A stretch of 64,000 bases of DNA from a virus. Location of the stretch: IMG/VR virus record IMGVR_UViG_3300009078_000075, positions 1 to 64,000 of that record; one strand, given 5' to 3'. Each line of letters begins with the position of its first letter. Within the stretch, counting starts at the first letter, position 1. Position numbers and translations under genes: made by a program. The notes beneath the pieces were generated by a model. The model had not been told where the DNA came from. It was given only the letters and a program-made list of their open reading frames with translations, and searched no databases. This document shows, piece by piece, positions 1,249 to 46,077 of this stretch.

Positions 1249-1283
1249 TTTTTTCTCCTTTGTTAAAGGTTTCTGTTTTCCCC

Positions 1284-1322
1284 CTCTATTATATATATCG
1301 ACACATATTACTTTTTTGATCG
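1284..1322 (-). promoter_or_regulatory. Repeated promoter class A (CGAT-N18-CGATATATATAATAGAG)
   Basis: One of six copies. Contains TATAAT and is followed by a conserved leader and an AGGAG RBS. Confidence 0.75.
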
Positions 1323-4164: not shown

Positions 4165-5030
4165 TATCTTATCCTTTCAATATGTGTATTTGATTTCCCC
4201 CAGTATGAATTTTCATTTAATAGAGCATTTATTGAACATTTCCAACCGATTGGTTTATTAATCGATTCTTGTTGAAGTATTTTCCATTTTGCTAAAATAT
4301 CTTCATGTCCTGAATACCAATCATTTTTAAATTCAACATCCTGTTTAAAATAATAGGCATAATGATCAAATTTTTGATTTAATAATATACCTTTATCAGT
4401 GTCAATTAATATAGGGGGCTCATGTTGTTTAAATTTTGTAAAATTCCATATCCATAATCTTCGATATGGTAGTAATTTTCCTTCCCCCCATTCCCCTTTT
4501 GCCTGTAAATTTACACCTACCCAATAATTACAAAGGAATTCCCCCATTGTATTTCCGGAAATAATCAAATCATTTTCCGCTTGTTCAATTGATGGTAAAT
4601 CCCATTGCTCATCAATATCGATTTCCCATAAAAATATTTTTTCTTTTCTTTGTGATTTATAATTATAATTATATTTACCTAAATAATAATGAAGAAGAAC
4701 ATTTATACACGAATTAACTTGATCATCTTTTGAATGCCAAAATTTTGTATTGTTATCAATATAACTGTTATTAAATGTATAATGATTTGATAAAAAAACA
4801 TTCTCATTATTATTACAAAGTTCTTCTAAAAATTTAACAGTTCCATCAACTGAATGTCCTTTATTATGATATTTATCGGGCATTTTTTTACACCAATTAG
4901 TAGATCCCTGTGAAAGACTCGCCCCTTCTGCAATAATCCATAAATCAAAATTTTTTGTAATAAAATCATAATAATTGTCATGTAATAAATGATGTTTCCC
5001 ATTTAAAATAATTGAAAAGGCAACTCTCAT
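4164..5030 (-). CDS. Putative glycosyltransferase (GT-A-like)
   Basis: HSVDGT motif and WEIDIDEQW DxD motif. Confidence 0.55.
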   Translation of the reverse strand: MRVAFSIILNGKHHLLHDNYYDFITKNFDLWIIAEGASLSQGSTNWCKKMPDKYHNKGHSVDGTVKFLEELCNNNENVFLSNHYTFNNSYIDNNTKFWHSKDDQVNSCINVLLHYYLGKYNYNYKSQRKEKIFLWEIDIDEQWDLPSIEQAENDLIISGNTMGEFLCNYWVGVNLQAKGEWGEGKLLPYRRLWIWNFTKFKQHEPPILIDTDKGILLNQKFDHYAYYFKQDVEFKNDWYSGHEDILAKWKILQQESINKPIGWKCSINALLNENSYWGKSNTHIERIR

Positions 5031-5665
5031 AATGACTCCTTTAATTTTTTATATTCTTTATTTGTTACCATTTTATTTCTTAATTTTCTAATTGCTTGAT
5101 CATGTATTTGTCTTATACGTTCCCTTGTCAAATTAAGGACATTTCCTATTTCTTGGTTATTTGATGATTCATTTCTATTAATTCCATAACACATTTTTAT
5201 TACTATTTGTTCTTTTTCTGTAAGAGTATTTATATACCTTTGTAAATGAATAGACATTTCATTATTATTTATTCGTTCCTCAACCAAATCAATTGGAAAC
5301 ATTTTATCTTGTAGATTAAGTGAATCCTCAAAATTTTCAATTTTTTCTCTAAAATATAAATCTTCTTGCCGGTCATTTTCAAATTCAGGAATTCTTATTG
5401 AAACATATGGAAATTTATTATATTTCCTCCTCCATTTTATAGCCCTAAGAATTTCAAAATTCATACATTTATACATCCATGTTGCTAATTTAATTCCTTC
5501 ATTCTTATCAAAAGATTCAATTGCTTTTATCATCCCTATTGATGCCACTTGAAAATAATCCTGTTTATCAAAAATTGAATTTGTTGTAAAATGACTAATT
5601 ACATTCCAAATTAAACCGATATGATCAAGAATAATCTCATTTCTTTTTTCAATTGTTATTTTCAT
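5027..5665 (-). CDS. Sigma-70 family RNA polymerase sigma factor
   Basis: DYFQVASIGMIKAIESFD..GIKLATW (region 2) and EIGNVLNLTRERIRQIHDQAIRKLR (region 4.2). Confidence 0.9.
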   Translation of the reverse strand: MKITIEKRNEIILDHIGLIWNVISHFTTNSIFDKQDYFQVASIGMIKAIESFDKNEGIKLATWMYKCMNFEILRAIKWRRKYNKFPYVSIRIPEFENDRQEDLYFREKIENFEDSLNLQDKMFPIDLVEERINNNEMSIHLQRYINTLTEKEQIVIKMCYGINRNESSNNQEIGNVLNLTRERIRQIHDQAIRKLRNKMVTNKEYKKLKESL

Positions 5666-6434: not shown

Positions 6435-9077
6435 TTATAACTCCTTATAAAAATTGGAAATAGGATACATTTTTGCCCAGTTACCATTTATTTCAGAGCA
6501 TTCAATTTCAATATCTAATGGGACAATAATCCATTCCCATTCCTTTCTTATATCCTCACACATTATTTTTCTTATAATTGGTACCAATTCCATCGTTTCA
6601 TTTGGAACCATGTCAAAAATAATACTATCGTGTATTTGAGCAACAATTTTACTTTTATATTTATTTTGTCTCAAAAATTTATTTATTGTTATTAAAGATT
6701 TTAATAAACAATGGAAAGCCGTCCCTTGTATTGGATAGTTAAGCACATTATTTTTTCTCATTATCCCAGTACATTCAAATCCTGATAATAAGGAAACTTT
6801 CCCCGTACTAAGATAATTTTGCCATGTTTCCTCTTTCCATTGTGTATATACTTTAAATTTTTGCTTCCAAAAAATTTCTTCACATTTTCTTACATGCTCT
6901 TCAAAATCATAATAATCAAAAATACCGTATTTTTCTAAATGTTTTATAACTAATATTCCATCAGCAGTTTTTTCATTTTGAATTGAGTTCCATAAATTTG
7001 GGGCACACTGTTTATAATACGATCCATAAAATTGTGGAAAAACCCACTCATTTTTGGTGATGTATCTTAATTTTTTTGTTACTTGTTGTTTATCTAATTT
7101 AAATAAAGATGCAGCTTCATCTCGATGCATATCAGTAGTTGGATCTTGTATATAATTAATCATTAAAGGATCATGATGATAACATGCACTAAAACGTACT
7201 TCAATTCCACTATAATCAACTTCCATTAAAAAATTTCCCGTTGATGGGATAAATCCGCTTCTTATAAGATATAATAATAATTTATCCCTTTTTGGTATAT
7301 TCTGAATATTTGGATTTAATGAATTGGATCTGTATGTTCGGGCAGTATCTAAATTAAGAAAAAAATGAATAACCCCATCAATTGATTCTTTTAATATATT
7401 GGAAATATATGTTTCATTTGCCTTTGAAAATCTTCTTAAATTTAATAAATCTGAACAAAAGGGGGAATCAATTTTTTCGAGGACTTCTTTATCAACGGAA
7501 TAATTTCCTTTGGTCGTTTCTTTTGTTTTTTCATAATGTAAAATTGTATTAAACAAATTTATAAGTTGGGGATCAGAATTTGGATTAAATTTTATATCGG
7601 GGTGAATTTCATTCCATTTTATAATTTCATCACTTTCCTGAATCCTTTCCCCTATTTTTTTAATTCTATTATCTAAATACCCTTGTTGTTCTATAAAGTA
7701 ATCATAATTTGTACTAATCCCATTTCTTTCAACATATGCAAGTTCAATATTTCCCTGTGTAAATAAATCAATTCCTTTTTTAAGAACAGGATTTTTTTCA
7801 ATTTCTACTAATTGTTTTTCATATTCTCGAAATTCATACATTGAATCCAATCCACAATATAATAATACCTTTTCAGGATTTTTTTCAAAGAATTCCTTCA
7901 TCCTATTAAATCCATTACATCCGTATTTTTCTTCTTCTTCAATAGGGGAACTAATATAAGGGTGAACATCATCATCATATCCGGTTACCCCAAAATCAAC
8001 ATATGTCCTAAATTTTAATCCCGTAGTACTGGGACGATTGTCAAGAATATGTGCTGAAGTTTTTGTGTCAAATAACCATGGGGATACTTCATGGCCACAA
8101 ATTACATTTGTCCATGTATCTTCAAATTTTAAATTTTGTGCTCCTTTTTGTATTTGTTCAGATTGAAGAACCTGCTGATATAAAAAACGAAATTCATCAT
8201 CTTTAAAAAATGGAAAAGCAGTTGCATTATAAGGTCCCGTTGAAATAGAAACACAAATTATTTCATGTCCTTTTCGATACGGCTTTAACCCGGTAGTTTC
8301 ATAATCAAAAAATATAACCGGAGGTTTTTCAAAAAGAAGTTTATTTAAATAATTCTTTGCATCTGATAAATTTAAAATTATTGAAATTTTTTCTTTATCA
8401 TTACTAAAATCAGGAAAAGGGACATCCCAAAAAATTGCCTCTTTTAAATGTTGAATAAATAATTTTTCAGCAGGGGGAGAACAGTTTGCAAATTGCTTTT
8501 CTTCTTTTTGGCGAAGAATAAAAGAAGGATGATACATTGGAAAAATCCATGTTTTTAATGTTTGATCAGGAATTTTCCATCCAACCCATTTTGATATTTT
8601 CCCAACACTATCAATATAATTTCCAATAACTGAATCAAGGGCCTCTTGTCCAAATAATATTATTTTTTTTGGTTGAAGTTCTTTTATTGCATCAAACAAA
8701 AATGGGCGACAACATTTTACATGTTTATTTGTTACCGAATCCATATAAGGAGAACATTTAATGGCATTATCTTTCCATCCATCCCGATCAAGCGAAAAAT
8801 GAAAAGATTTTAAAATTGATCGAAGATATTGCCCTGTAATTCCAATGAATTGTTCATTTTGATTGTCTTCAATAGGACCAGGGAATTGTCCAATAAATAA
8901 AATTCCCTTTTCACCAAGTCCGGTATAGGACATTTTGGGGGATTTACATACTAAATTTAATTTACATGACTCACATGAATACGTTCCTTTTTTTTCTTTT
9001 ACTGCACTTGGTCCCTTTTCTGTATTATTATTTCCCTGCTGTAGTTTTTTAGTTACCTGATCACTATCAAAAAACAT
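6435..9077 (-). CDS. polA: Family A DNA polymerase with N-terminal family-4 UDG-like domain and 3'-5' exonuclease
   Basis: UDG-like CESCKL..C/GQFPG/YHPS; Exo DYETTGL, NLKFE, YCGLD; Pol motifs DYSGIEVR, R...K...FPQFYG, IHDS. Confidence 0.92.
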   Translation of the reverse strand: MFFDSDQVTKKLQQGNNNTEKGPSAVKEKKGTYSCESCKLNLVCKSPKMSYTGLGEKGILFIGQFPGPIEDNQNEQFIGITGQYLRSILKSFHFSLDRDGWKDNAIKCSPYMDSVTNKHVKCCRPFLFDAIKELQPKKIILFGQEALDSVIGNYIDSVGKISKWVGWKIPDQTLKTWIFPMYHPSFILRQKEEKQFANCSPPAEKLFIQHLKEAIFWDVPFPDFSNDKEKISIILNLSDAKNYLNKLLFEKPPVIFFDYETTGLKPYRKGHEIICVSISTGPYNATAFPFFKDDEFRFLYQQVLQSEQIQKGAQNLKFEDTWTNVICGHEVSPWLFDTKTSAHILDNRPSTTGLKFRTYVDFGVTGYDDDVHPYISSPIEEEEKYGCNGFNRMKEFFEKNPEKVLLYCGLDSMYEFREYEKQLVEIEKNPVLKKGIDLFTQGNIELAYVERNGISTNYDYFIEQQGYLDNRIKKIGERIQESDEIIKWNEIHPDIKFNPNSDPQLINLFNTILHYEKTKETTKGNYSVDKEVLEKIDSPFCSDLLNLRRFSKANETYISNILKESIDGVIHFFLNLDTARTYRSNSLNPNIQNIPKRDKLLLYLIRSGFIPSTGNFLMEVDYSGIEVRFSACYHHDPLMINYIQDPTTDMHRDEAASLFKLDKQQVTKKLRYITKNEWVFPQFYGSYYKQCAPNLWNSIQNEKTADGILVIKHLEKYGIFDYYDFEEHVRKCEEIFWKQKFKVYTQWKEETWQNYLSTGKVSLLSGFECTGIMRKNNVLNYPIQGTAFHCLLKSLITINKFLRQNKYKSKIVAQIHDSIIFDMVPNETMELVPIIRKIMCEDIRKEWEWIIVPLDIEIECSEINGNWAKMYPISNFYKEL

Positions 9078-10188: not shown

Positions 10189-11124
10189 TTAAAAAAATCC
10201 AAATTTTTTAGGTTTTCTTACAAAAACCGAAGGATTTTGTGTAAGATATTCAGATATTTTTCTAAAATAGAAAAAATTTATTCGTCTTCTATACATATAA
10301 TGATTAGCTAAACCGGCCTCTTTTATAATTTCTATTTTTTTATTTGGAACTATCCATCTTTCATTTTCTTTTTTTATATGATTTGAAGGGACATTTATAT
10401 ATTCTGATATCCCCATTCTTGTATATTTTTTTGGAAAAAATGTATCAAAATATTCATCAATTTCTTTTTTTAATAATGAGTCCTTTGGAAGAAGATGGTA
10501 ATAAAAAAATCGATCAGAACTATTTATTTTTTTTGAATTTTCTTCCATATAAGCCATATGCACAATTCTATTATTAAGAAAATCCCATTTATTTTCTTTT
10601 TTTGTTGCTATCATAATATCTCCAAATCCAGCAACTAATATTGGTCGTACTGAATCAACTGATTCCCAGGGATAAGCAAACATTAAACTAATTGTTGTTA
10701 TTCCAAATCCGTGTACCTTTACTTTCGGATATCCCTTTTCATTACATATAATATCAAAACATTTTATTAACCAATTATGTACTGATTCAGTATCTGTTTT
10801 TGTCATTTTTGCCATTCCACCAAGTGCTATATATTCATATTTTTCAACATATAATTTTAATATTGAAAAATCTTCTCCATAATGAAAACAAGGGAGAACT
10901 TTTATATTTAAATTTGCATTATTTATTATTTCTTGATTTATTTGTGTTTGTTTTTGTGTTTCTTCCGTTCCACCGATAACATCTAAATTAGCAGCCATTA
11001 ATATTTCTTTTTCATTTTCTTTTAAAAAAGAAATATATTCATTTATATCAATTTTTTCTCCCTGTGTAAATGCAGTAAAGGCCCCTGAATCAACAAAAAT
11101 ATTTAATTTACTTTTAGCATTCAC
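10189..11124 (-). CDS. dpdA: DpdA-like / TGT-fold DNA 7-deazaguanine transglycosylase
   Basis: FVDSGAFT, NLDVIG, FHYGED, IALGGM, KVHGFG and YPWESVDS TGT-family motifs; que genes present in the same window. Confidence 0.75.
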   Translation of the reverse strand: MNAKSKLNIFVDSGAFTAFTQGEKIDINEYISFLKENEKEILMAANLDVIGGTEETQKQTQINQEIINNANLNIKVLPCFHYGEDFSILKLYVEKYEYIALGGMAKMTKTDTESVHNWLIKCFDIICNEKGYPKVKVHGFGITTISLMFAYPWESVDSVRPILVAGFGDIMIATKKENKWDFLNNRIVHMAYMEENSKKINSSDRFFYYHLLPKDSLLKKEIDEYFDTFFPKKYTRMGISEYINVPSNHIKKENERWIVPNKKIEIIKEAGLANHYMYRRRINFFYFRKISEYLTQNPSVFVRKPKKFGFF

Positions 11125-15198: not shown

Positions 15199-15699
15199 TT
15201 ACTTATTAAGTGCTTCCCTTTGTTGATCAACAATATCTTCCCTTGTTTTTTCTTTTTCTTTTTCACCCCTATTTCTTACAATGTTTCCTCTTTCTTTAAA
15301 ATTTTGTTTTAAATCTTTTGATGAGTTCCAATATTCATTAACCCACAAATCAGTTAGTTTTTCTAACATCTTTCTGTGTGTATATAATGCATCTAAAATT
15401 GATTTTAATTTATCTACATTTTTTTGAAATTGATTATATACAGAATCTTCTTCAACCGATGCCTTTACCTTTGATTCACTTATTTTTAAATCATTTTCTC
15501 TTAAATTTGAGCAAAATAATGATTTATACCCAGATTGTTCATATTTTACTTCTGATAATAGATCCCCATAATCAAGAACAAGTGTTGATAACATGGTCAT
15601 TTCTTGATGCAGAGCGTCTAAATCTAATGTCAAATTCGGTTTTGTTATTTCAATATATAAATACTTATATTGTGATATATCAATTTTTAATTCATCCAT
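15199..15699 (-). CDS. Putative UvsY-like recombination mediator
   Basis: Helical protein with KISESKVKASV...ALYTHRKMLEKL; context next to SSB/RecA. Confidence 0.5.
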   Translation of the reverse strand: MDELKIDISQYKYLYIEITKPNLTLDLDALHQEMTMLSTLVLDYGDLLSEVKYEQSGYKSLFCSNLRENDLKISESKVKASVEEDSVYNQFQKNVDKLKSILDALYTHRKMLEKLTDLWVNEYWNSSKDLKQNFKERGNIVRNRGEKEKEKTREDIVDQQREALNK

Positions 15700-16628
15700 T
15701 TTTGCTCATCTCCATTAAAATATTTAAAACATGATAACATCAATCCCGCTTTTCCTGTATAAAAAGCAGGGTCCTTAAAACAATAAATTCCAAATCCTGC
15801 CCTTATATCTGTATATGATTTTTCTATCATTTTTGAAAAATAACTGCATATTCCCCTTCTCATTTTTTCTACATTTTCACAGTCATTTATTACATTACAT
15901 ATAATGTCCCATTCCTTTTTTTTATACAAACATTGACACAATTGCCGAAAGACCCCTCCTGAAAGAACTGTTTTTTGAATTTCATCAAGGGCTTCTTCCT
16001 CTGATAACCCAATAACAGATTCTAAAATTGATATGGCATTTCTGTAAGCCCCTTCCGATGCTTTACATATTTCCCTTATTACATCATCGGAAATTTTAAT
16101 TTTTTCTTTTATACATATATCAGTTAATGCTTTTTTAATTCCAATATAGGGGGGATTTAATTTTTGAAGATGAAATACACTTGCCCTACTTATAATTCCA
16201 GCATTTATTTGTTCAATGTTTGTAGTACATAAAATAAAATAAACATGTTTGGGAGGTTCCTCAAAAACTTTTAAAAGTGATCCTTGAAAGGCACTGCTGG
16301 TTTCTTGAATTTCATCAATAATCCATACTCGAATTTTTCCGGAAGAAGGGGCAAGATCCAAATTTAATTTTAATTTATCCGCTGATCCTACTCCCCGATC
16401 TGTTCCAGCATCAATTTCGGTAAGGTCCCATTTTGAACAACCAAGTTCTTTTGCAAAAACTCGAGCAAATGTTGTTTTCCCTGTTCCATATGGTCCTGAA
16501 AATATAAAAAAATGTTTTGTAGAAGGATCATCCTTTTTTGAAACAATATATTTTAATTGTTTCTTAATCGAATCTTGTCCGATTATTTCATCAAAATCAT
16601 TTGGTCTATGTTTATTATATAATGACAT
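15687..16628 (-). CDS. dnaX: Clamp loader, DNA Pol III gamma/tau-like AAA+ ATPase
   Basis: LYNKHRPNDFDEIIGQ, GPYGTGKTT, IIDE, LLKVFEEPP, FILCTT. Confidence 0.88.
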   Translation of the reverse strand: MSLYNKHRPNDFDEIIGQDSIKKQLKYIVSKKDDPSTKHFFIFSGPYGTGKTTFARVFAKELGCSKWDLTEIDAGTDRGVGSADKLKLNLDLAPSSGKIRVWIIDEIQETSSAFQGSLLKVFEEPPKHVYFILCTTNIEQINAGIISRASVFHLQKLNPPYIGIKKALTDICIKEKIKISDDVIREICKASEGAYRNAISILESVIGLSEEEALDEIQKTVLSGGVFRQLCQCLYKKKEWDIICNVINDCENVEKMRRGICSYFSKMIEKSYTDIRAGFGIYCFKDPAFYTGKAGLMLSCFKYFNGDEQKWMN

Positions 16629-16681
16629 ATTCCTTCTTTTAAGGGTTTTTTAAAATTAAAAAACAAATATCAAAATTTATA

Positions 16682-16743
16682 AGGGCAAAGAGGAGGCTTG
16701 TCAGTTATGGGTTTCTTCATATTATTGGTTCCACCTTTGCCCT
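16682..16743 (-). ncRNA. Stem-enclosed dual-spacer unit 3 (TIGR-like)
   Basis: On the minus strand: AGGGCAAAG-gtgg-AACCA-ataatatga-AGAAACCCA-taactgaca-AGCC-tcct-CTTTGCCCT. TACATAATA motif upstream at 16749-16757. Confidence 0.7.
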
Positions 16744-16773
16744 GTTTATATTATGTAACGTCCATTAAAATTT

Positions 16774-17511
16774 TTACACCGAAATCCAATCATTAGATAC
16801 AAAGGGGGATAAAAGGGGTAAATCTTTTAGCGAGTAATATTCATTCCAAAAATGAACAAATCTTCCATCTGGTGGGATTATTTTACATTGATCGATCAGA
16901 TTTAAAAAACAACTATCTACACAATATATTTTACGTGCCCCTTGTAATAAAGAAATCCAATCAAAAATTTCCCATCTATTTGAAGGAAATTGTTTTATTT
17001 CAATTGTTTTTATAGCTTTATCAATTTTAAAATCAAAATGTCTTCCGTTACTTCCATTTTGATGAATCACTATATAAGGATCATTTTTTATATCAAAAAA
17101 ATTAAGTAAATCTTTTTCAATTTCCGGAATTCTATTTATTATTTTTAATAAAAGATATTTATGAAAATAAGGAATACAGGCTTTTTTATATTTCCAAACA
17201 TCAAATGATAAATTTGTCTTTTTCCATTCATCATTTAGATTTTGATTTCCAAAACCAATTGCAAGATCCAAAGTCCCATTAAAATTATTACCTATATTTT
17301 TTGACCTCTCATATGCTTCAATCCCACTTGTTAGAGGACCAATATCAATTACGTTTATTGGAAAATTGACATATAAAAACAAATTTTGATATTCATTGCA
17401 AATGGGCCATGTTATTTCATATCCGAGATCATAATAATACTTTGCAATTGGAAGAACCAATAGGATATCCCCTTTTCGCCCTGGTTGTATTATTAATAAT
17501 TCTTTTCTCAT
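16774..17511 (-). CDS. Putative glycosyltransferase (GT9/GT-B-like)
   Basis: GRKGDILLVLPIA N-terminal motif, YIVIHQ, IYCVDSCFLNL. Confidence 0.6.
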   Translation of the reverse strand: MRKELLIIQPGRKGDILLVLPIAKYYYDLGYEITWPICNEYQNLFLYVNFPINVIDIGPLTSGIEAYERSKNIGNNFNGTLDLAIGFGNQNLNDEWKKTNLSFDVWKYKKACIPYFHKYLLLKIINRIPEIEKDLLNFFDIKNDPYIVIHQNGSNGRHFDFKIDKAIKTIEIKQFPSNRWEIFDWISLLQGARKIYCVDSCFLNLIDQCKIIPPDGRFVHFWNEYYSLKDLPLLSPFVSNDWISV

Positions 17512-17750
17512 TTTTGTATCCAATAATGGTATATTCCTTTTACCCAACTAAAGGTAAAAAAAATTGAAGTTATGAATAAACCAAATCTGAACACCGGGAA
17601 AAAACATATATAAAAATATGAAACCTGCCCTGCAAATAACAACAAAAAACCCCATTTTATTATATTTTTATTTTTTGAAGCTACAAAAAAACTTCCCAAA
17701 ATTGAAGTAACAATCATCCAAATTTGTAAAATTTGCTCAAATATAAACAT
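17508..17750 (-). CDS. Small membrane protein
   Basis: Three hydrophobic segments, WGF...GQ...GIYHW. Confidence 0.55.
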   Translation of the reverse strand: MFIFEQILQIWMIVTSILGSFFVASKNKNIIKWGFLLLFAGQVSYFYICFFPVFRFGLFITSIFFTFSWVKGIYHYWIQK

Positions 17751-24845: not shown

Positions 24846-27209
24846 TTAAGCTATATAAACATCGGAAATATTAAAAGTATGGGCTAATCTTGATCTTTTT
24901 CTAAACATACAAGCATAACGTACTTCATCTGCTATATGATCCTCTTGACTATTTGCTATATCATCGGGATTTTTATCATCCCGAACAAGAAAAGGAACTG
25001 TTCTAATAAAATCAGTACATGTTGCTAATACATATAATAAAGGTCCCTGTGATTCCTCTTCCCCTTCAAATCGTCCCCTTAATTGTTGCCATCCTGGTAT
25101 TCTTGATTTATCAGATTGTACAAATAAATCATACCCCATTTGTTTAGCTATTGAATCTCCACCCCGCTCTTCCCAAATTTGATTATCTGCGGGCCCTTTC
25201 CTTATATTTAATGATGACCATTTTTTTTCTCTTTCAATTATTCCTTCCCCAATTTTTTTATTAAGTAATCGTAGCCCTGTATTTGGATTAATCGCTTTTT
25301 TATCATTTCCATACCATTCAGAAAATCGAATTAAGGTTCCCCTTGGATATGTTACCCCATTTGGTGCAGGGGTCCCATCTGATTCTGTCCACCATCCAAC
25401 TGAAAATGGGGACCCTGATCCCCAGTCAAAAGAACGAAAACAGAACCAATGTCTGGGAGGTATAAAACATTTTGACAAAGGAATTACATTTTTTGATGAG
25501 TTCCAAACATCGGAAAAAAATCCTCCAACATTTACATCCCATCGTCCATATACCCATGCTTTTACAAGTTCTTTATCGGGAAGAGCCAAAAGACGGGATC
25601 GATATTCGGGGTCCATATTCATAAAAGGAATATTTTCAAGCATGTTTCCAAATATAGAGACCCTTTTATGTCCTTTATCATTAATAACCGTTCCCCATGG
25701 TGCAGGATCAATAAAATAATTTTTAACTGCACTACGTCCGATTCCCCATGGATTCCCTGTGGACCGGATACGGATAGGAATACCCATCCCCGTTGCTCGG
25801 TTACAGCTAATCATACTTTGATAACAATCCATGTCTGGCCAATTTAATAATTCTTCCCATCCGATCCACGAATAACTATTTCCTGATAACCAAGTAGATC
25901 CATTTTGTCTAATAAAAAAATTATGATTTTTTTCAACACCTAAACAATAAACTTTACCATTATATTTTATTCGTTTAATTTGTGATTTTAATTTCTTTTT
26001 ATTTAATTTTCTAATTCTATTGTCAGTATATAATTTAAGTTCTTTTTTTGGATTAAAAGCAATTGTATATAAAATTTTATTTTTACAACCTTCTTTTTTT
26101 TGAATAGCAGAATAAACAGAATACCCGAGTTTTACCCCAATTTCTTGTAAATCATCACTCATTTTTTTAGATATTGTATATATATAAACTCTATTTTGCT
26201 GTTTTGTTCCATCTCCAAGTGCATATGCATCAAAAAAAGCTTGTAAACATTCTCTATTACTTTGTTTTATATTATTAGGAATATATTTATCTTTACATTT
26301 TCCAAATTTAGAAAGGTATAAATATTGTTTTTTATCTCTCCAAACAAATCCAAAATTAGTTTTATTATATTTAATTTTTAAATTGTCAAGAAGATTTTGT
26401 ATAATTTTTACATTTTGTTCCTTTTGTTGACAAATTCCTATTGTATAATGTTTTTTATAAAGATTGGTGTATCCCTCTGATAAAAACCATCCCATAAATT
26501 TACAATAATTAATATCTAAATTCTTTCCTTTTGTTAATTTCCATCCACTATTTTTTATTTTAGTTATTCTTGGTAATTTTGAATATTCTATCAATTCGTT
26601 TGAGATTGAAGGAAGTTTATGTTCTGGGGTAAAAGACATATATTTTCCACGACCATTATAAATTATTAAATCTCCATTATAATCTTCTATTGTTTTGGTT
26701 TTAACCATTTGATAAGATAATTCATTTTTTTTATTAGTACTTAAAACTTTTTCTCCTATTTTTATATTTTGAATAGGTATCCACCCATTTTTTGTTAAAA
26801 TATCCCCTTTATCTACACAATGCCCATGATAGTTATCGTAGTCATTTCGATCCCAAAAATATCGTAAATATAAAAGTTCCCCCCCCGGAAAAGCCCATGT
26901 ATAATCTGCTTTATTAAATTCTGCCTTTGGACATGCCATCCGAAACCATTTTTTTGATTTAATAACAAGATCTGATAATTGTTTATATGTTCGCCTAAAA
27001 AGAATCCCTCTCCAATCTGAGCCATACCCTTTTCCAACCTCTTGAAAGAAATCCATGATTAAAGCATCGGTCTTACCAACTGCCCGTGTACCTGTGTATA
27101 GTACTTGATGATAAGGACATGAAAGAAACAAACATTGAGATCCCGGATTTGGTTTCCAAACAACACTTAAATTATCAAGATTTTTTTTATTATTAAGTTC
27201 TCGGTTCAT
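24846..27209 (-). CDS. terL: Terminase large subunit containing an intein
   Basis: Walker A GTRAVGKT, Walker B-like WIGWEEL, STGNPWG, nuclease FDWG and EDHIADEVRY. Confidence 0.92.
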   Translation of the reverse strand: MNRELNNKKNLDNLSVVWKPNPGSQCLFLSCPYHQVLYTGTRAVGKTDALIMDFFQEVGKGYGSDWRGILFRRTYKQLSDLVIKSKKWFRMACPKAEFNKADYTWAFPGGELLYLRYFWDRNDYDNYHGHCVDKGDILTKNGWIPIQNIKIGEKVLSTNKKNELSYQMVKTKTIEDYNGDLIIYNGRGKYMSFTPEHKLPSISNELIEYSKLPRITKIKNSGWKLTKGKNLDINYCKFMGWFLSEGYTNLYKKHYTIGICQQKEQNVKIIQNLLDNLKIKYNKTNFGFVWRDKKQYLYLSKFGKCKDKYIPNNIKQSNRECLQAFFDAYALGDGTKQQNRVYIYTISKKMSDDLQEIGVKLGYSVYSAIQKKEGCKNKILYTIAFNPKKELKLYTDNRIRKLNKKKLKSQIKRIKYNGKVYCLGVEKNHNFFIRQNGSTWLSGNSYSWIGWEELLNWPDMDCYQSMISCNRATGMGIPIRIRSTGNPWGIGRSAVKNYFIDPAPWGTVINDKGHKRVSIFGNMLENIPFMNMDPEYRSRLLALPDKELVKAWVYGRWDVNVGGFFSDVWNSSKNVIPLSKCFIPPRHWFCFRSFDWGSGSPFSVGWWTESDGTPAPNGVTYPRGTLIRFSEWYGNDKKAINPNTGLRLLNKKIGEGIIEREKKWSSLNIRKGPADNQIWEERGGDSIAKQMGYDLFVQSDKSRIPGWQQLRGRFEGEEESQGPLLYVLATCTDFIRTVPFLVRDDKNPDDIANSQEDHIADEVRYACMFRKRSRLAHTFNISDVYIA
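25878..26819 (-). mobile_element. Intein (314 aa) with LAGLIDADG homing endonuclease
   Basis: Starts at Cys131 (CVDKGDILTKNGW), block B TPEHK, LAGLIDADG-like FMGWFLSEG and AYALGDG, ends VYCLGVEKNHNFF..GN followed by Ser+1. Confidence 0.9.
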
Positions 27210-28351: not shown

Positions 28352-30322
28352 ATGAAAATTGATGAAATTGTTCAATCGAATGAATATACAATTTCAGCAT
28401 TATTAGCTCTTTACGGGTATCAAACACAAGATGAACAAACTTCAGAATACACAACATCATTAAATGGAGCAGGATTTAATAAAATTGATGCCCCTATTCT
28501 TTCCTCTATTTCACAATTTTTTCTTAAAAATGGATTTTTAACCGAAAAACAATTATCCCTTGTAAAAAGATCAATTAAAAAATATCATACACAAATTGAA
28601 GCATTTGAATTAACTCCTGTAAAAACAAAAGAACCAAAAACAAAAGAACCAAAAACACAAGAAAATGGGGGGACCCCTTTTGAGGGAATTAAAAAGGCAA
28701 GACTCGAAAAAGATTTTATTTATCTTAAATTTCATTTTGCAAAGGGAGATAAAAAATTCTTTGAAATTCTTACAAAAGTAAAAACATTAGCATGGAGACA
28801 ATGGGACCCCGATACAAAAGAATGGAAAGTAAGGCGTTCCCTTGAAACATTAAAAAAATTACATGAGTGGGAATTTAAATTTGATGTTGAATTACAGAAA
28901 TGGTATGAATCAGTTTTTAGCAATAACATTAATAAGGATCTTGACGTTCCCATTGATATGTCTCTTTACCCATTTCAAAAAGAAGGGGTAGCATTTATTG
29001 ATCTTAAAAATGGAAGGGCATTAATCGGGGATGAAATGGGACTTGGGAAAACCTGTCAAGCAATCGGATGGACATCCCTTCATCCTGATAAAAAACCCGT
29101 ACTTATCATATGTCCTTCCAATGTCAAATTAAATTGGAAAAGGGAAATCAAAAAGTGTCTTCCCCGGGCAAGGGTTGAATTGGTAGAAGGACGGGATTAT
29201 AAGGGAGCAATGGACGGTGATTATGTTATTTGTAATTATGATATAGTGTCAAAAAATAAGGAAAAACTCATATCCACAAATTTTAAAGTATTGATACTTG
29301 ATGAATGTCATTATATAAAAAACTATAAAGCAAAACGAACTGCAGTAATTACTGAAATCGGAAAGGCAATTGAACATGTTATTTGTTTATCAGGGACTCC
29401 GATTGTTAATCGTCCCATTGAATTTTTTACAGCATTAAATTTACTACGTCCTGATTTATTCCCCTCATATTGGGAATATGTTAATAAATATTGTCCGGCA
29501 GATGGATGGACAAAGTGGCAAACAACAAAAGGTTCTGCAAATGAAATTGAACTTCATAATAATTTAATTCAAACCATGATGTTAAGACGATTAAAAAAAG
29601 ATGTTTTAACACAGCTTCCGTTAAAGCAACGGCAAGTTATCCCTATGGAATGTGATTTGACAGAATACAATAAAGCGGAAGACGATTTAATTTCATGGAT
29701 GAAAGAAAATGGATATGGTAAAGACAAAATTTTTTGTGCTATGAATGCTGAAATTATTACAAGGATTGAGTATTTAAAACAAATTGCAGTAAAGGCAAAA
29801 TATGAATCAATTGTTGATTGGATTAATAATTATTTAAGCTCAGGGAAAAAATTAGTTATTTTTTGTACTCATCATGCAACGATTGATTTTTTAATGGAAA
29901 CATTTAAAGGAATTGCAGTAAAATTAGATGGGCGTGATAATATGGGAAAAAAACAAATTGCCATTGATCGATTTCAAAGTGATCAAGAAATTAGACTTTT
30001 TATAGGAAATATAAAAGCGGCAGGAGTGGGAATTGATGGTTTACAAAATGTAGCAGAGGACACATGTTTTATTGAGTTAGGATGGACCCCTGGTGATCAT
30101 AATCAAGCAGAAGATCGAGTACATCGAATTGGACAAGAGGCAGATTCAGTGACAGCTTTTTATTTATTGACTGCTGGTACAATTGAAGAGGAAATTGCAG
30201 AATTAATTGATAAAAAAAGAAATGTATTAAATCAGATTTTAGACGGAAAAGTGCCCGATGAAACCGAATTGATAAGTATTTTATTAAATAACCTTTTAAA
30301 TAAGGAGACAAAAAATGGATAA
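28352..30322 (+). CDS. SNF2-family helicase (SMARCAL1/HARP-like)
   Basis: LYPFQKEG, GDEMGLGKT, DECH, LSGTP, LRRLKKDVL, QAEDRVHRIGQ. Confidence 0.92.
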   Translation: MKIDEIVQSNEYTISALLALYGYQTQDEQTSEYTTSLNGAGFNKIDAPILSSISQFFLKNGFLTEKQLSLVKRSIKKYHTQIEAFELTPVKTKEPKTKEPKTQENGGTPFEGIKKARLEKDFIYLKFHFAKGDKKFFEILTKVKTLAWRQWDPDTKEWKVRRSLETLKKLHEWEFKFDVELQKWYESVFSNNINKDLDVPIDMSLYPFQKEGVAFIDLKNGRALIGDEMGLGKTCQAIGWTSLHPDKKPVLIICPSNVKLNWKREIKKCLPRARVELVEGRDYKGAMDGDYVICNYDIVSKNKEKLISTNFKVLILDECHYIKNYKAKRTAVITEIGKAIEHVICLSGTPIVNRPIEFFTALNLLRPDLFPSYWEYVNKYCPADGWTKWQTTKGSANEIELHNNLIQTMMLRRLKKDVLTQLPLKQRQVIPMECDLTEYNKAEDDLISWMKENGYGKDKIFCAMNAEIITRIEYLKQIAVKAKYESIVDWINNYLSSGKKLVIFCTHHATIDFLMETFKGIAVKLDGRDNMGKKQIAIDRFQSDQEIRLFIGNIKAAGVGIDGLQNVAEDTCFIELGWTPGDHNQAEDRVHRIGQEADSVTAFYLLTAGTIEEEIAELIDKKRNVLNQILDGKVPDETELISILLNNLLNKETKNG

Positions 30323-30869
30323 GAAAATTGAATTTACAAAAGAAATGGAAAAGATTTGTTGTTACTGGGCTTGGAAATATACAACAAAAAGTCATATGTT
30401 ATTTGACGAATTAAAATCAGTTGCATTTTATACTTTTTGTGACGTTCGGAGAACATATTTAGAAAATCATTCACAGGCCCCATTTAAGGCGTATCTACAA
30501 AGGGCATTAGATATTACCTTAAAAAGGGCCGTTTCAAATGATTTACGTTTTACTAATGTCTCATATGATTCAGTATTTAATGTTAAGGTTCCCTGTAAAT
30601 ATTATCCGCAGGATATTTCAGAATGTGATTTTTTACAACTGGATCAAATGGACAATGTTGATGAAATTCTTAGTAGGGAACAATTAATAGAAAACCTTTC
30701 ATGTGAATCAAAGGAAATGATTTACATTATAATAAAGAATCACGGAGATATTTTTTTAGGACGAAAAGAAACAAAACAAAGGGTTTTAAATTATTTTCTT
30801 TCCCTTAATTGGAAAAGAGGAAAAATAACCAAATGTTTTAATGAAATTAAATCAATTTTGTCATTATAG
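30315..30869 (+). CDS. Divergent sigma-factor-like protein
   Basis: FDELKSVA...APFKAYL region 2-like; weak C-terminal similarity. Confidence 0.45.
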
Positions 30870-31446: not shown

Positions 31447-32115
31447 ATGTATCTCATCCATTTTATTGGAAAACAATATTATAGTATTGCACAATTTATA
31501 AAAGAAGCAAAACAATATAGGATTTCAAGAAAAATTGCTCCCAATATGTTAAAAAAATTATCCTTTGGTGATATTATATTACTCGCTCAAGGGGATTCCA
31601 AAGGGTCCTTAATTTTTGGATTTTTCATATTTACTTCAATTTTTGGATTAAAACATGAATTATTTGAAAAACTTGAACAAGAAAAAATTATATCATTACA
31701 ATCAAATAATCCTATTCCGGTAAATCGTGGATGCGGCAGTTATGTTATTACAGCAAGTTATGGGATAACAAATCAACAAAGGTTTTTTGAATTTATAAAA
31801 GAACAAAATGATGAAGATTTAAAAGGCGTTTTAATTGGAGGAACTTTTTATGAATTATCTGATCTTCTCCCTGAAAAAGAAATTCATACAAATATTCCTT
31901 TTCAACAAGGATTTCGATTTTTTGATTTTGAATCATTTAAAAAAGAATATTTAAAACAAAAAGAAAATAAAAAAAGAATTAGGATTATAGGAATGTTTTA
32001 TACAAAAGAAATACATGGTAATATTTTTACAGATTCAGATCCAAAATTTTTTGAAATAAAGGACTATCAAAAAAATACTGAATCAAGAAAACGGGGACAT
32101 AAAAAGAGGGGGTAG
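31447..32115 (+). CDS. Hypothetical protein
   Basis: 222-aa ORF with AAGGA RBS. Confidence 0.65.
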   Translation: MYLIHFIGKQYYSIAQFIKEAKQYRISRKIAPNMLKKLSFGDIILLAQGDSKGSLIFGFFIFTSIFGLKHELFEKLEQEKIISLQSNNPIPVNRGCGSYVITASYGITNQQRFFEFIKEQNDEDLKGVLIGGTFYELSDLLPEKEIHTNIPFQQGFRFFDFESFKKEYLKQKENKKRIRIIGMFYTKEIHGNIFTDSDPKFFEIKDYQKNTESRKRGHKKRG

Positions 32116-33840: not shown

Positions 33841-33861
33841 AAAATACATAATAATATCATG

Positions 33862-33922
33862 AGGGCAAAGGGGAACCATAAAAGGGAAGAAACCCAATCC
33901 GTTCAAGCCTCACCTTTGCCCT
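33862..33922 (+). ncRNA. Stem-enclosed dual-spacer unit 1 (TIGR-like)
   Basis: AGGGCAAAG-ggg-AACCA-taaaaggga-AGAAACCCA-atccgttca-AGCC-tcac-CTTTGCCCT; TACATAATA at 33845. Confidence 0.7.
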
Positions 33923-33955
33923 TATAAATTTTGATGGACGTTACATAATAATAAC

Positions 33956-34016
33956 AGGGCAAAGGGGAACCAAAAAGAAAAAGAAACCCATATGAATAAA
34001 GCCTCCTCTTTGCCCT
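33956..34016 (+). ncRNA. Stem-enclosed dual-spacer unit 2 (TIGR-like)
   Basis: AGGGCAAAG-ggg-AACCA-aaaagaaaa-AGAAACCCA-tatgaataa-AGCC-tcct-CTTTGCCCT; TACATAATA at 33942. Confidence 0.7.
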
Positions 34017-34155: not shown

Positions 34156-35715
34156 ATGCCAAGTAACCCGATCACATGGACAAAACAAAGAATTAATGTA
34201 AACATAGAAAAACTTATTCTCACGGGTATCATCGTATCCGACGAATTTACAAAAGAAATATTCAAAATAATAAATCGTGATAACTTAAAGATATTCAATT
34301 TGCCTTATTTTAAGCTAATTGTGCCCTGGTGCATGGAGTATTATAATAAGTTCCATAAATGTCCCGGGAGAACAATACAAGATTTATTTATTGAAAATTT
34401 TCGATCCCTAAGTGATGAAGATTCCGTTTTTATAAAAGAATTTTTGTCAAACCTTTCCGATCAATACGATTCCGAAGCAAATTCTTTTGATGTTAATTAT
34501 GTACTTGAAAAAGCAAAAAAATATATAAAACTTCAGTCTTATTCATTTTATGGAGAAAAAATATATAAGACTTCATTATCAGGGAATGTAGATGAATGTG
34601 ATTTGATACGTGAAGATTTTAATAAAATGACAATAACAGGTTCCGGAAGTGGAGATATATTAGATAAGTTTGCTAAATCGATTGGTGATTTTCTTCAGAT
34701 GGATATTGAAACAAATCGGTTTTTTCTTAAACCTTTTTTATATCGGGGTGCCCTCATATTAGTACATGGAAAAAGAGGTGCTGGAAAATCATTTTTTAGT
34801 CAATCGATTGCTTTAAGTATTTCAACCGAATTGAAAAATAACAAGGATATTGATTTTGGATCATGGGAAGTATGGAATAAGGCAAAAGTGTTATATGTTA
34901 ATGGGGATGATCCACCGGGGGAAATTTTGTATAGGTTAAAAAAACTTACTCATCGATTTGATTTGACACATGAAAAGAATGCTCTTTTTGAAATTTTGTC
35001 GGTTTTACAATTAAACCAAGAAACACAGACCACTTTTAATTTATATCATAGACCGGATCGTGAAATACTTACTGATTATGTTAGAAAAAATCATGTTGAT
35101 GTTTTGATTCTTGACAACTTGAGTACATTATCTTATGGGGCAGATGATAAAGAGGCAACAAGTTGGGCCCCGGTAAATTTGTGGTTAGTGCAGTTACGGC
35201 AATTTGGTATTTCCGTTATCGTAATTGATCATGAGGGAAAGGACTCGAGTAAGGGGGCACGGGGAACATCGGCAAAATCTGATAGCATGGATGCTGTAAT
35301 AAGTGTTTCAGCAATGAATAATGAAGATGATGAGAATCAAAGCGATTGTTTTTGTGAGATTCGTTTTCAAAAAAGACCAAGAACACAAATTGAAAAAGTT
35401 GATTTAAGTCCTTTTCTTTTTAATATGAAACGGATTGATGAAGAGGAAAATTTAGTGTGGGAAGTACAAAAAAATAAAAGAATCCCAATTGAAAAAAAGG
35501 ATTCTGTATCAAATATAACCATAAAAACCATGGTTCTTGAAGGGTATAATAATAAAGATATTATAAAGGAATGTAATTTAAAAGGGGACTGGGCAATTCA
35601 GAATGTAAAAAAAGATTTAAAAAACAGAGGATACATTGAAGATAATCGATATGGTAAAATTACTGAATCAGGGAAAGAATACCTTGAAAAATTAAAGAAA
35701 TCAGGGATGGAATGA
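34156..35715 (+). CDS. Replicative helicase (SF4/RepA-like AAA_25)
   Basis: Walker A GKRGAGKS, LILDNLSTL, IDHEGK, ARGTSAK. Confidence 0.8.
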   Translation: MPSNPITWTKQRINVNIEKLILTGIIVSDEFTKEIFKIINRDNLKIFNLPYFKLIVPWCMEYYNKFHKCPGRTIQDLFIENFRSLSDEDSVFIKEFLSNLSDQYDSEANSFDVNYVLEKAKKYIKLQSYSFYGEKIYKTSLSGNVDECDLIREDFNKMTITGSGSGDILDKFAKSIGDFLQMDIETNRFFLKPFLYRGALILVHGKRGAGKSFFSQSIALSISTELKNNKDIDFGSWEVWNKAKVLYVNGDDPPGEILYRLKKLTHRFDLTHEKNALFEILSVLQLNQETQTTFNLYHRPDREILTDYVRKNHVDVLILDNLSTLSYGADDKEATSWAPVNLWLVQLRQFGISVIVIDHEGKDSSKGARGTSAKSDSMDAVISVSAMNNEDDENQSDCFCEIRFQKRPRTQIEKVDLSPFLFNMKRIDEEENLVWEVQKNKRIPIEKKDSVSNITIKTMVLEGYNNKDIIKECNLKGDWAIQNVKKDLKNRGYIEDNRYGKITESGKEYLEKLKKSGME

Positions 35716-35985: not shown

Positions 35986-36924
35986 ATGATTTGTAAAGAA
36001 TGTGGAATTAATTTTTCTATAATAACCCATACTCATTTAAAAAAACATAATCTTACAATAAATGAATATAAAAATAAATATAATATAGTTTCTTTGGTTG
36101 ATCCATGTTTTGGACAAAAAATGAGTATGAAGTTAAAGGGGAAAATTAATATAGGAGAAAAAAATGCAAGTAAACGAAAAGAAGTAAGATCAAAAATTTC
36201 TGAATCTGTTAAAAATAGATGGGAAGAAGGAAAGTATAAAAATCGTATAAATGGGATGTTAGGAAAACTCGGAGAATTGTCTCCTAATTTTAAGATTGAA
36301 AAAAGAACTCCTTTGTTTTTGGCAGAACACAATTATGTAAAATTTTTGTCTCAATTTCAAGATACACATGTTTGTAGTTTGTGTAAAAGTTCCGATAAAA
36401 AAATTAATATACATCATATTGATGAAGATCATTCTAATTTTCTTCCTTCTAATTTAGAACCTTTATGTGTTCCGTGTCATTCTCAATATCATTATAAATT
36501 TGCAAAGGGACCTTTTATGAGAATTGGTAAATTTTTTTCTTTTGCTGGTGCTCATTTTTTACCTGATTATGATGGTATTTGTAATCATCTTCATGGGCAT
36601 GAATGGAAATTAGAAGTGTTTGTAAAAAAAAGAGTTAATTATAAGACTGGAATGGTTTTAGATTTTACTATTTTAAAAAAAATAGTAGATAATTTTATTA
36701 TTTCAAAATTAGATCATTGTTTTTTAAATGATATTATATCTAATCCAACTGCGGAAAATATATTAATTTGGATATGGGAAAAATTAATGTTTGATGGTTT
36801 ATTAAAAGGAATAGATGAAATAAATTTATGGGAAACAGAAAAAAGTAAAATTTCTCTCAGTAGTAAAGAAATGCTATCTATTTTTTCAAATAATATTGAA
36901 GAATATATTTTGGGGGAAATATGA
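35986..36924 (+). CDS. queD: QueD (6-carboxytetrahydropterin synthase) fused to N-terminal zinc finger/HNH domain
   Basis: C-terminal FAGAHFL..CNHLHGHEW, GMVLDF, LDH..LN, PTAENI, WET. N-terminal CKECG..THLKKH and HHIDEDHSN...NL..LC..CH. Confidence 0.85.
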   Translation: MICKECGINFSIITHTHLKKHNLTINEYKNKYNIVSLVDPCFGQKMSMKLKGKINIGEKNASKRKEVRSKISESVKNRWEEGKYKNRINGMLGKLGELSPNFKIEKRTPLFLAEHNYVKFLSQFQDTHVCSLCKSSDKKINIHHIDEDHSNFLPSNLEPLCVPCHSQYHYKFAKGPFMRIGKFFSFAGAHFLPDYDGICNHLHGHEWKLEVFVKKRVNYKTGMVLDFTILKKIVDNFIISKLDHCFLNDIISNPTAENILIWIWEKLMFDGLLKGIDEINLWETEKSKISLSSKEMLSIFSNNIEEYILGEI

Positions 36925-37592
36925 TGATAAAAGTAAATGAAATATTTTTATCAATTGATGGTGAAGTAAATGCCTTTGGTCAGGGGGGATTTTCTACATT
37001 TATTCGTTTTTCTGGTTGTAATTGTAAATGTAATTATTGTGATACTCAGTATCATAATACTGGTACTTATTATTCAATTGCACAAATTATGGATAAAGTA
37101 AGGGAAATCGGATGTAATAAAATAACAATCACAGGGGGGGAACCTTTGCTTCAATCAGAAAGTATACCCTTGATTGAAGCATTAGTATTTAGTCATCATA
37201 GTGTTTCCGTTGAAACAAATGGATCAATTGAAGTTCCTTTTATAATGGGATCATTTTATTTGTCATTTGTGGTGGATTATAAATTACCATCATCCGGAAT
37301 GATGGATCGAATGAAACCGATAAAAATGTTTCAAAAATTAGGACCCCTTGATTTTGTAAAATTTGTTATTCAAAATGATGAAGACTTTTTATGTGCTTGC
37401 CGTATTGCAAAAGAGGTGAGAAGTGTAAATTATGGGACATCAATTGCTTTTAGTCCTGTATTTTTAAAACAAGATGATGGTCGTTTTATTCAATCGTATC
37501 CCTTATATGATAAAATGATTGAAGCAAAACTATTTGAAATTCCAAAAATGTTTCTTAATTATCAAATTCATAAAATAATAGGATTAAAGTAA
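36921..37592 (+). CDS. queE: 7-carboxy-7-deazaguanine synthase (radical SAM)
   Basis: EIFLSIDGE, FIRFSGCNCKCNYCDT, ITGGEP, VETNG, QIHK. Confidence 0.9.
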   Translation: MMIKVNEIFLSIDGEVNAFGQGGFSTFIRFSGCNCKCNYCDTQYHNTGTYYSIAQIMDKVREIGCNKITITGGEPLLQSESIPLIEALVFSHHSVSVETNGSIEVPFIMGSFYLSFVVDYKLPSSGMMDRMKPIKMFQKLGPLDFVKFVIQNDEDFLCACRIAKEVRSVNYGTSIAFSPVFLKQDDGRFIQSYPLYDKMIEAKLFEIPKMFLNYQIHKIIGLK

Positions 37593-37604
37593 AGGAGAAA
37601 AATC

Positions 37605-38285
37605 ATGAAATTAGATAATGATAATTGTCTTGTTCTTTTATCTGGGGGACAAGATTCTACTACTTGTCTTTTTTGGGCATTAAATAATTTTAATGAAGTA
37701 AATGCTCTGTTTATTAATTATAAACAAAGGCATCGAATAGAAGAGGAATCAGCTTTTAAAATTGCAAATCTTGCTGGTGTTCCCATTGGATTGATATGTA
37801 CTGATATTATAGCAGATATTGGGGATTCTGCCCTTGTTATGACGGGAGATATTTTAAGTAAACATAGATCCGGGGATTTACCGGCTTCTTTTGTACCAGG
37901 AAGAAATATTTTATTTTTGACAATAGCTGCTATGTATGCTTATAAATTAGGAATACATAATATTGTGGCAGGGGTTTGTGAAACTGATTATTCAGGATAT
38001 CCCGATTGTAGACAAAAAACGATTGATTCTGTTCAAAATACCCTTAATTTGGGAATGGAATATGATTTTGTTATACATACCCCTTTGATGTATAAAACTA
38101 AATGTGAAACTGTTATAATGGCTTCTTTATTGTCCGGGTGTTGGGATGCCCTTGCATGGAGTCATACATGTTATGAGGGAAAAATTCCACCTTGTGGTAA
38201 ATGCCCTTCATGTGTGTTGAGGGCACGTGGATTTGAAGAAGCCGGATATGAAGATCCTTTAATAAAAAGACTGGGGATTAAGTAA
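37605..38285 (+). CDS. queC: 7-cyano-7-deazaguanine synthase
   Basis: LSGGQDSTT, FVPGRN, YPDCR, SHTCY, CGKCPSCVLR. Confidence 0.95.
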   Translation: MKLDNDNCLVLLSGGQDSTTCLFWALNNFNEVNALFINYKQRHRIEEESAFKIANLAGVPIGLICTDIIADIGDSALVMTGDILSKHRSGDLPASFVPGRNILFLTIAAMYAYKLGIHNIVAGVCETDYSGYPDCRQKTIDSVQNTLNLGMEYDFVIHTPLMYKTKCETVIMASLLSGCWDALAWSHTCYEGKIPPCGKCPSCVLRARGFEEAGYEDPLIKRLGIK

Positions 38286-45887: not shown

Positions 45888-46077
45888 GCAGGAATTACAG
45901 GAACTTATAAATCGTTATAGTAAAGAATCAGGATCGGATACCCCTGATTTTATGCTTGCTGAATATCTTTATGATTGTCTTATCGTGTTTGGGAAGACTA
46001 TGAAAGCAAGGGATAAATGGTATGGAAAGGAAAAATTTACTGGATTAAATTCAAATATTTTAGAAAAAAACGATTGA
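45874..46077 (+). CDS. Hypothetical phage protein
   Basis: LINRYSKE..SDTPDFMLAEYL; AGGAG RBS. Confidence 0.6.
   Translation: MKTFEQELQELINRYSKESGSDTPDFMLAEYLYDCLIVFGKTMKARDKWYGKEKFTGLNSNILEKND

Follow-up and report, generated by a model that had tools for sequence, protein, structure and literature searches.

The IMG/VR virus record IMGVR_UViG_3300009078_000075 comprises 82,517 bases, of which the first 64,000 nucleotides form the window (the whole stretch analysed here), and it carries three copies of a hairpin element, named units A, B and C, that very probably represent tigRNA units, i.e., guide RNA units of the TIGR (tandem interspaced guide RNA) systems, by descent as well as by anatomy. 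More precisely, the element appears to be a stem-closed form of the unit found in dual-repeat TIGR arrays. Using the pattern GGGCAAAG-N35-55-CTTTGCCC, the element was found exactly three times in the window, where none is expected (100 shuffles), and the full record holds no fourth copy. Units A and B stand in tandem, 94 nt apart, and unit C lies alone, 17 kb away and on the opposite strand. The units and the parts of unit C are as follows:

16683-16742, minus strand: unit C, tigRNA-like and stem-closed, 60 nt
16731-16742, minus strand: 5' stem arm of unit C
16726-16730, minus strand: box C of unit C (AACCA)
16717-16725, minus strand: spacer A of unit C (ATAATATGA)
16708-16716, minus strand: loop repeat of unit C (AGAAACCCA)
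16699-16707, minus strand: spacer B of unit C (TAACTGACA)
16695-16698, minus strand: box D of unit C plus CC (AGCC)
16683-16694, minus strand: 3' stem arm of unit C
33863-33921, plus strand: unit A, with spacers TAAAAGGGA (33879-33887) and ATCCGTTCA (33897-33905)
33957-34015, plus strand: unit B, with spacers AAAAGAAAA (33973-33981) and TATGAATAA (33991-33999)

Every copy displays the same order, namely a stem, GG-AACCA, 9 nt, AGAAACCCA, 9 nt, AG-CC and the stem again, and the series CCA-9 nt-AG occurs twice in each of the three units, its register being that of 102 canonical TIGR units. The box C, box D and loop letters, together with both 9-nt lengths, are intact in the three copies. The closing stems have 9-13 bp, and the predicted folds range from -17.8 to -24.1 kcal/mol (z from -3.0 to -3.3), with -17.8 kcal/mol and a z of -3.1 for unit C; in the fold of unit B, the entire two-spacer core forms an open loop. 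The stem base reads CCC-UU in units A and C and CCC-UA in unit B. Pairwise comparison of the copies shows 10-12 differences in the 18 spacer positions and only 0-2 in the 41 constant ones (Fisher p ~1e-6 per pair). The initial annotation of this DNA had described a minus-strand copy with a core at 16695-16730 and two 9-nt spacers, and had placed the differences between copies mainly in the spacers; both statements agree with the present results, and its coordinates are exact when the unit is aligned to the 102 canonical ones.

An IMG/VR scan, for which the query consisted of the element's constant letters only (AACCA-N8-AAGAAACCCA-N8-AAG), returned 10 contigs, six of which contain tandem dual-repeat TIGR arrays with a period of 36, an edge repeat AGTGAACCA, a loop repeat AGAAACCCA and 9-nt spacers. 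Judged by their sequences, these period-36 arrays are genuine TIGR arrays, because a 306-aa open reading frame (ORF) beside the 27-unit array of locus L007 has matches to two known proteins, the solved TaTasR 9mty (E 1.7e-12) and TasH (E 3e-6), and because other loci are flanked by related genes for Tas, the TIGR-associated protein (L011, L006 with two genes, and L012 with the TasH form); a Tas gene is also present in G004, the record of L009. When compared to 102 array units, the box C letters, the complete loop repeat, the AG of box D and the 9 + 9 spacing of the element are all equal, and the sole change concerns the middle of the edge repeat, which has become a long stem (AG-CC...stem...GG-AACCA replaces AG-UG-AACCA).

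In total, about 16 constant letters agree with the consensus of real arrays at the canonical spacing, which argues strongly against an unrelated hairpin repeat (e.g., a protein-binding inverted repeat or an attenuator) resembling a TIGR unit by chance. The internal two-fold symmetry of the unit (AACCA-9-AG twice), with variation confined to two 9-nt segments, is likewise neither operator- nor terminator-like. The chance resemblance would fit the Rfam result, in which only one tRNA reached the gathering thresholds and chance-level matches alone surrounded the unit, and it would fit the outer arms GGGCAAAGG/CCTTTGCCC, which form an inverted repeat at the DNA level too, but we regard it as very improbable.

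A sequence-only covariance model built from the 102 array units (R1) and searched on both strands of the 82.5 kb matched the three units only, with E-values of 2.4e-6 (A), 1.3e-5 (B) and 1.4e-5 (C, at 16697-16731 on the minus strand), the next best match having 0.19. The three units score 22-25 bits, inside the 14-29 bits of genuine array units, but it counts against our identification that the comparison arrays were retrieved with a pattern derived from the element, so that to some extent the R1 matches were bound to arise. What does not depend on this choice is that such arrays exist, that they adjoin Tas genes and that they have this consensus and this spacing. The TIGR likeness proposed from the first inspection therefore holds, since the constant parts of the unit and their spacing are those of real TIGR arrays beside Tas genes.

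The three units also share flanking sequences and a promoter-like motif, located as follows:

33922-33956, plus strand: linker between units A and B, 35 nt, which holds the promoter motif of unit B
16743-16775, minus strand: linker-like box before unit C, which starts directly after the stop codon of the ORF at 16774-17547
16669-16682, minus strand: flank 3' of unit C (TTATAAATTTTGAT), identical to the flank after unit A
16749-16757, minus strand: promoter-like motif TACATAATA of unit C, 6 nt before the stem
33845-33853, plus strand: promoter-like motif TACATAATA of unit A, 9 nt before the stem
33942-33950, plus strand: promoter-like motif TACATAATA of unit B, 6 nt before the stem

The upstream box AAATTTTAATGGACGTTACATAATA (16751-16775, minus strand) has one mismatch in 25 positions when compared to the box preceding unit B. 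Moreover, parts of the A-B linker flank unit C on both sides, with TTATAAATTTTGAT downstream and the promoter-bearing part upstream, and the last C of the stem together with the TTATAAATTTTGAT flank yields CUU at the stem base of unit C. Because the A-B linker recurs on both its sides, unit C looks like an internal linker-unit-linker segment of a mini-array of this type, relocated and inverted. Two proposals of the initial annotation are thus supported, i.e., that unit C and the unit at 33956 have their upstream sequence in common (24 of 25 letters agree) and that promoter and unit were copied as a cassette, both flanks of unit C being A-B linker sequence.

The motif TACATAATA occurs 14 times in the window versus 1.58 expected (~9-fold), a count reached in none of 100 shuffles, and most copies are intergenic and located 9-66 nt 5' of a ribosome-binding site (RBS) and an ORF. 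It does not fit the sigma-70 consensus promoter. Since the motif is enriched and mostly precedes an RBS and an ORF, the units would use the phage's own promoter type, with a transcription start probably at or just before the first stem base.

Some further observations concern transcription in this phage. The TACATAATA sites span positions 2786-57007 of the window (e.g., 39211, 49216, 53989, 55792 and 56999), mostly just before an RBS and an ORF in the small-gene cluster at 39-58 kb. Two minus-strand ORFs (window 5027-5665 and 1335-1871) have sigma-70 region 2 and/or region 4, and a helical plus-strand ORF (30315-30869), sigma-like by eye, is perhaps a third; the phage may redirect transcription via its own sigma factors. 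In addition, a direct repeat of ~70 nt (window 1252-1322 and record 81676-81746) precedes two minus-strand genes, encoding an SLT transglycosylase and a DUF7726 protein, and is probably a second shared cassette of promoter and RBS.

With respect to genes, units B and C are associated with the replication operons of the phage. The gene next to unit C is the following:

15687-16628, minus strand: clamp-loader gene (Pfam DNA_pol3_delta2, 5e-20; phrog_5846, 4e-55)

Unit C is located 54 nt 5' of the start codon of this gene, with no terminator-like site between them on the minus strand, and the clamp loader is followed by a gp32-like single-stranded DNA-binding protein (SSB), RecA and a family A polymerase (PolA), in agreement with the earlier placement of the unit at the head of a clamp loader-SSB-recA-Pol operon. 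Unit B lies ahead of the helicase-QueD/E/C-FolE operon; downstream of the unit there are an RBS, a 42-aa ORF and the helicase gene (34156-35715; Pfam AAA_25, 1e-18). Since an RBS and the first operon genes come next, the hairpins of units B and C are at least part of the operon leaders. Downstream of unit A, there is only the promoter of unit B and no gene.

As for other genes of the window, the ORF at 16774-17547, directly upstream of unit C, has no family match; by eye, it resembles a glycosyltransferase of the GT9 type. The family A DNA polymerase (6435-9077, minus strand) displays an N-terminal domain of the uracil-DNA-glycosylase superfamily (PF03167, E 5.5e-19), followed by a 3'-5' exonuclease domain. 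An ORF of 311 aa (10189-11124, minus strand) belongs to queuine tRNA-ribosyltransferase (DpdA/TGT-like) families (phrog_887, 1e-46; phrog_7068, 4e-15), with no Pfam match, and would supply the preQ0 pathway, encoded by the genes at 35986-39187, with its base-exchange enzyme. Finally, a terminase-like ORF of 787 aa (24846-27209, minus strand) seems by eye to contain an intein or a homing-endonuclease-like insert.

We favour the reading that the units are working guide genes, with Tas encoded in the unread ~9 kb of the genome or provided by another element, and give it about an even chance, because the protein-contact letters, the 9 + 9 geometry and the phage's own promoter type have been kept and because unit A leads no gene directly. 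In such a mechanism, the two half edge repeats, joined by a stem of 9-13 bp, would allow the unit to stand alone as a stem-loop tigRNA. Transcription would begin a few nt past TACATAATA, at or beside the first stem base, and the 5' end would need no processing; the 3' end would be made at the stem-base CUU, or the hairpin would remain on the mRNA as a leader. The RNA would then load onto a dimer of the Tas (Nop-domain) protein, and the two 9-nt spacers would read an 18-bp DNA site, with one spacer per strand. Tas would most simply be encoded in the ~9 kb missing from the record and would otherwise come from another element in the same cell. As the three units, with their own promoters, stand at the heads of two replication operons, guide production would follow the early or middle transcription of the replication genes. 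The outcome could be the silencing or the cleavage of foreign DNA, silencing being among the possibilities because nuclease-free TasA and inactive TasR have been published as RNA-guided repressors.

Several results weigh against working guide genes, and they concern the transcript ends, the targets, the relatives of the phage and the Tas gene itself. No terminator-like site was found after any of the three units; mRNA leaders may therefore be the only form in which the hairpins occur. As for targets, spacer A was sought on one strand and the adjacent spacer B on the other, in both arrangements and with gaps of 0-2, since the reported 3' overhangs lead one to expect the spacers on opposite strands of an adjacent site. 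In the phage's own genome, no tandem match exceeded those of shuffled spacers, the best one (unit A at 11763, with 2 mismatches) being reached by 3.5% of the shuffles before correction for three units, and the neighbouring genes showed no excess of spacer near-matches over shuffled controls. Exact 18-mers in IMG/VR numbered 0 for unit A and 3 independent ones for unit C, which is about chance. Note that the natural targets of most TIGR spacers are not known. The element is absent from the relatives identified by their clamp loader (33% identity) or their capsid protein (45%). Elsewhere, the stem pattern gave only chance matches without the core in IMG/VR, the core-plus-AAGCC pattern gave no stem-closed unit among the matches listed for IMG/VR and the JGI metagenomes, and a fixed-spacing pattern gave one chance match, in Mycobacterium, among 185,579 prokaryote genomes.

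These same results would suit an alternative in which the units are leftover or co-opted 5' leader hairpins, either because Tas was lost or because a fragment of a stem-loop array was acquired, and in which the spacers have no guiding role. The units would then persist just after the start of essential replication transcripts, where a 5'-terminal stem may protect the mRNA or bind another regulator. Consistent with this, units B and C belong to the 5' leaders of two operons (helicase and clamp loader) and lack a terminator-like site downstream, no target was found, no Tas was detected in the 82.5 kb, and the more distant phage relatives lack the element, which would imply a recent gain; that the spacers vary and the repeats do not could also be a legacy of the parent array and not the result of selection in this phage. 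However, none of the three copies has lost a letter of box C, box D or the loop or deviates from 9 nt in either spacer, unit A has a promoter after it and leads no gene directly, and the presence of the phage's own promoter motif in the linkers points to adaptation to expression here and not to debris. We therefore consider leader hairpins a serious explanation, albeit an unlikely one.

Concerning the Tas gene, a six-frame search of the 82.5 kb with the Pfam families Nop, Transposase_20, Nop5_56-rel_N_Arc and DEDD_Tnp_IS110 returned nothing, and neither did a search with the Tas of L007 as the query. The best E-values were 0.48 with a hidden Markov model (HMM) of five Tas sequences and 1 with an HMM of 149 diverse representatives of the family (5,645 clusters at E <= 0.001), these Tas profiles stemming from the dual-repeat clade, so that they might miss a Tas of the stem-loop clade. 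Profile-profile (HH) comparison of all 97 ORFs of at least 110 aa gave a best probability of 1.4%. The initial annotation had recognised no Nop-domain ORF in the 64 kb of the window, and this can be extended to the remaining 18.5 kb by Pfam, the Tas profiles and HH comparison alike. As a control, the five-sequence profile detected Tas in four of five array-bearing records, including one that had not contributed to it (E 3e-44), and in the fifth, where it detected none, the array abuts the contig end.

Most other ORFs of a size suitable for Tas have ordinary assignments. AlphaFold2 models made without an alignment had a predicted local distance difference test (pLDDT) score of 44 for the ORF at 54244-55119 and of 34 for that at 31447-32115, too low for a fold search; the former has no usable neighbour in the ESM Atlas and no homologue except itself, and ORF 39268, the third candidate named in the initial annotation, has no family match. 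The ORF at 79683-81065 was considered as Tas and rejected, as it consists of Cys-rich repeats and two HNH motifs without a Nop part. This ORF of 460 aa (L132 15683-17065, minus strand) contains repeated Cys-rich, zinc-finger-like modules followed by the two HNH motifs, and its HNH part weakly resembles the HNH domain of Cas9 (E 0.006). Similarly, PF23667, taken from the list of the 2025 paper, was discarded as a Tas model since it is an unrelated CUB family in the Pfam copy used.

The record itself is incomplete, because ORFs are cut at both of its ends (PAPS-reductase-like on the left, pentapeptide-repeat on the right) and because a longer contig has the same proteins. Five proteins spread over the record (the clamp loader, the capsid protein, the ORF at 54244-55119 and the ORFs nearest to the two ends) each occur on six contigs, the longest of which has 91,613 nt. 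About 9.1 kb of this phage genome thus lie outside the 82.5-kb record, and the Tas gene may lie there. Two freshwater-sediment samples contain all (100%) of the sequence words of the window, and Logan contigs encode capsid proteins that fall into one 90%-identity cluster with that of this phage. The two ends of the record do not overlap, and its right-end 33-mer has no match in IMG/VR. A remote Tas is not objectionable by distance, because in G004 tas and the arrays with this type of repeats are widely separated. This phage contig of 113 kb has one tas gene (108311-109420) and arrays at 4884-5422, 44267-44666 and 45616-45915 (L262), i.e., mini-arrays scattered among small genes and located 40-100 kb from tas on the linear record.

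A phage that truly lacks Tas, with units that are expressed along with the replication genes and either reprogramme, by means of the phage's own spacers, or block a Tas belonging to another phage or element within the same cell, seems doubtful to us, and more improbable still is the particular case of decoy RNAs, in which guide mimics expressed early would occupy the Tas of a competitor in the cell (a phage or another element) with guides that are harmless or self-serving, as counterparts of the RNA anti-CRISPRs (Racrs). Solitary, promoter-driven and repeat-like units with no effector found would correspond to the Racr layout as described (PMC10651486), and phage CRISPR-like RNAs that take over host Cas proteins have been reported (bioRxiv 10.1101/2024.10.29.618823). 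In addition, TIGR-Tas systems are mostly phage-borne (PMC12045711), which makes competition between phages plausible. For a decoy, however, the protein-binding parts would suffice, yet both spacers keep their working 9 nt and differ between copies; there is also no sign of a Tas-bearing competitor in the same sample, and the incompleteness of the genome speaks against decoys as well.

The units combine features of the two published guide architectures. Stem-loop tigRNAs have been described (PMC12045711; bioRxiv 10.64898/2026.09.09.750476), with a CUU processing motif and an inter-spacer loop of mostly 9 nt (bioRxiv 10.64898/2026.09.09.750476), and their arrays accompany TasA or inactive TasR, as for PlTasA, PateTasR, CsTasR, BlTasA and MbTasA (PMC12045711; bioRxiv 10.64898/2026.09.09.750476, 10.64898/2026.08.11.744272). 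The present units share with them the 9-nt inter-spacer loop, the palindromic flanking stem, a stem-base CUU in units A and C but not in B, the flexible positions and the small number of units per system, with a unit size of ~60 nt versus ~54 nt for PateTasR. In contrast to stem-loop arrays, which were catalogued within 10 kb of tas, no tas was found within 16 kb of any unit or in the 82.5 kb, every unit comes with a promoter motif of its own, and the units are found 17 kb apart, on opposite strands and in the leaders of replication operons. Their stems are also near-identical, whereas published stems are reported to diverge within an array (bioRxiv 10.64898/2026.09.09.750476).

Dual-repeat arrays (edge repeat AGUGAACCA and loop repeat AGAAACCCA; L006, L007 and L009-L012 in IMG/VR), which accompany a TasA of ~285 aa or TasH, have in common with the units the box C AACCA, the complete loop repeat, the box D AG and the 9-nt spacers. 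These arrays are tandem, with a period of 36, 11-30 units and no long stem, and their guide ends are cut in the edge repeat, whereas here the edge repeat is split by a stem of 9-13 bp and there is no 36-nt periodicity.

More distant systems resemble the units in part. Racrs and phage CRISPR-like regulatory RNAs are also solitary, repeat-derived small RNA genes whose matching effector is absent (PMC10651486; bioRxiv 10.1101/2024.10.29.618823), but they belong to CRISPR-Cas and the likeness is one of layout alone. Unlike archaeal box C/D small RNAs, the units have no RUGAUGA/CUGA boxes and no K-turn, and no fibrillarin or L7Ae gene accompanies them. The extended helices of stem-loop tigRNAs have been compared with those of bridge RNAs (PMC12045711); unlike IS110 bridge RNAs, the units are found with no IS110 transposase gene, PF01548 and PF02371 being absent.

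TIGR-Tas was described in 2025, and its natural roles, the biogenesis of its guides and the evolution of its arrays are open. Both TIGR-Tas and stem-loop tigRNAs are thus already known. In the literature searched, we did not find a hybrid unit in which a dual-repeat core is closed by a stem, one promoter per unit, the dispersal of units over 17 kb and both strands into replication-operon leaders, or such units without a detectable Tas. Note that Xu et al. took no more than 10 kb to either side of tas and that the terms 'solitary' and 'in trans' are not used in their paper.

Altogether, these units suggest that a lone tigRNA unit can constitute a gene by itself, driven from a promoter of its own, and that a stem closing the split edge repeat turns a dual-repeat unit into the stem-loop form, which provides a concrete intermediate between the two published architectures. 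Units can scatter to the heads of essential operons, far from an effector gene or without one. This bears on the question raised by Xu et al. of whether guides come from a promoter per unit or are cut from a precursor, and on their 'arrayless' Tas proteins, which would need a source of guides elsewhere. If the phage lacks Tas, it would offer a case in which to test guides or decoys acting upon a foreign effector, and, if its units indeed reprogramme or block the Tas of another phage or element, they would represent the first instance of TIGR-Tas being hijacked or countered by means of RNA.
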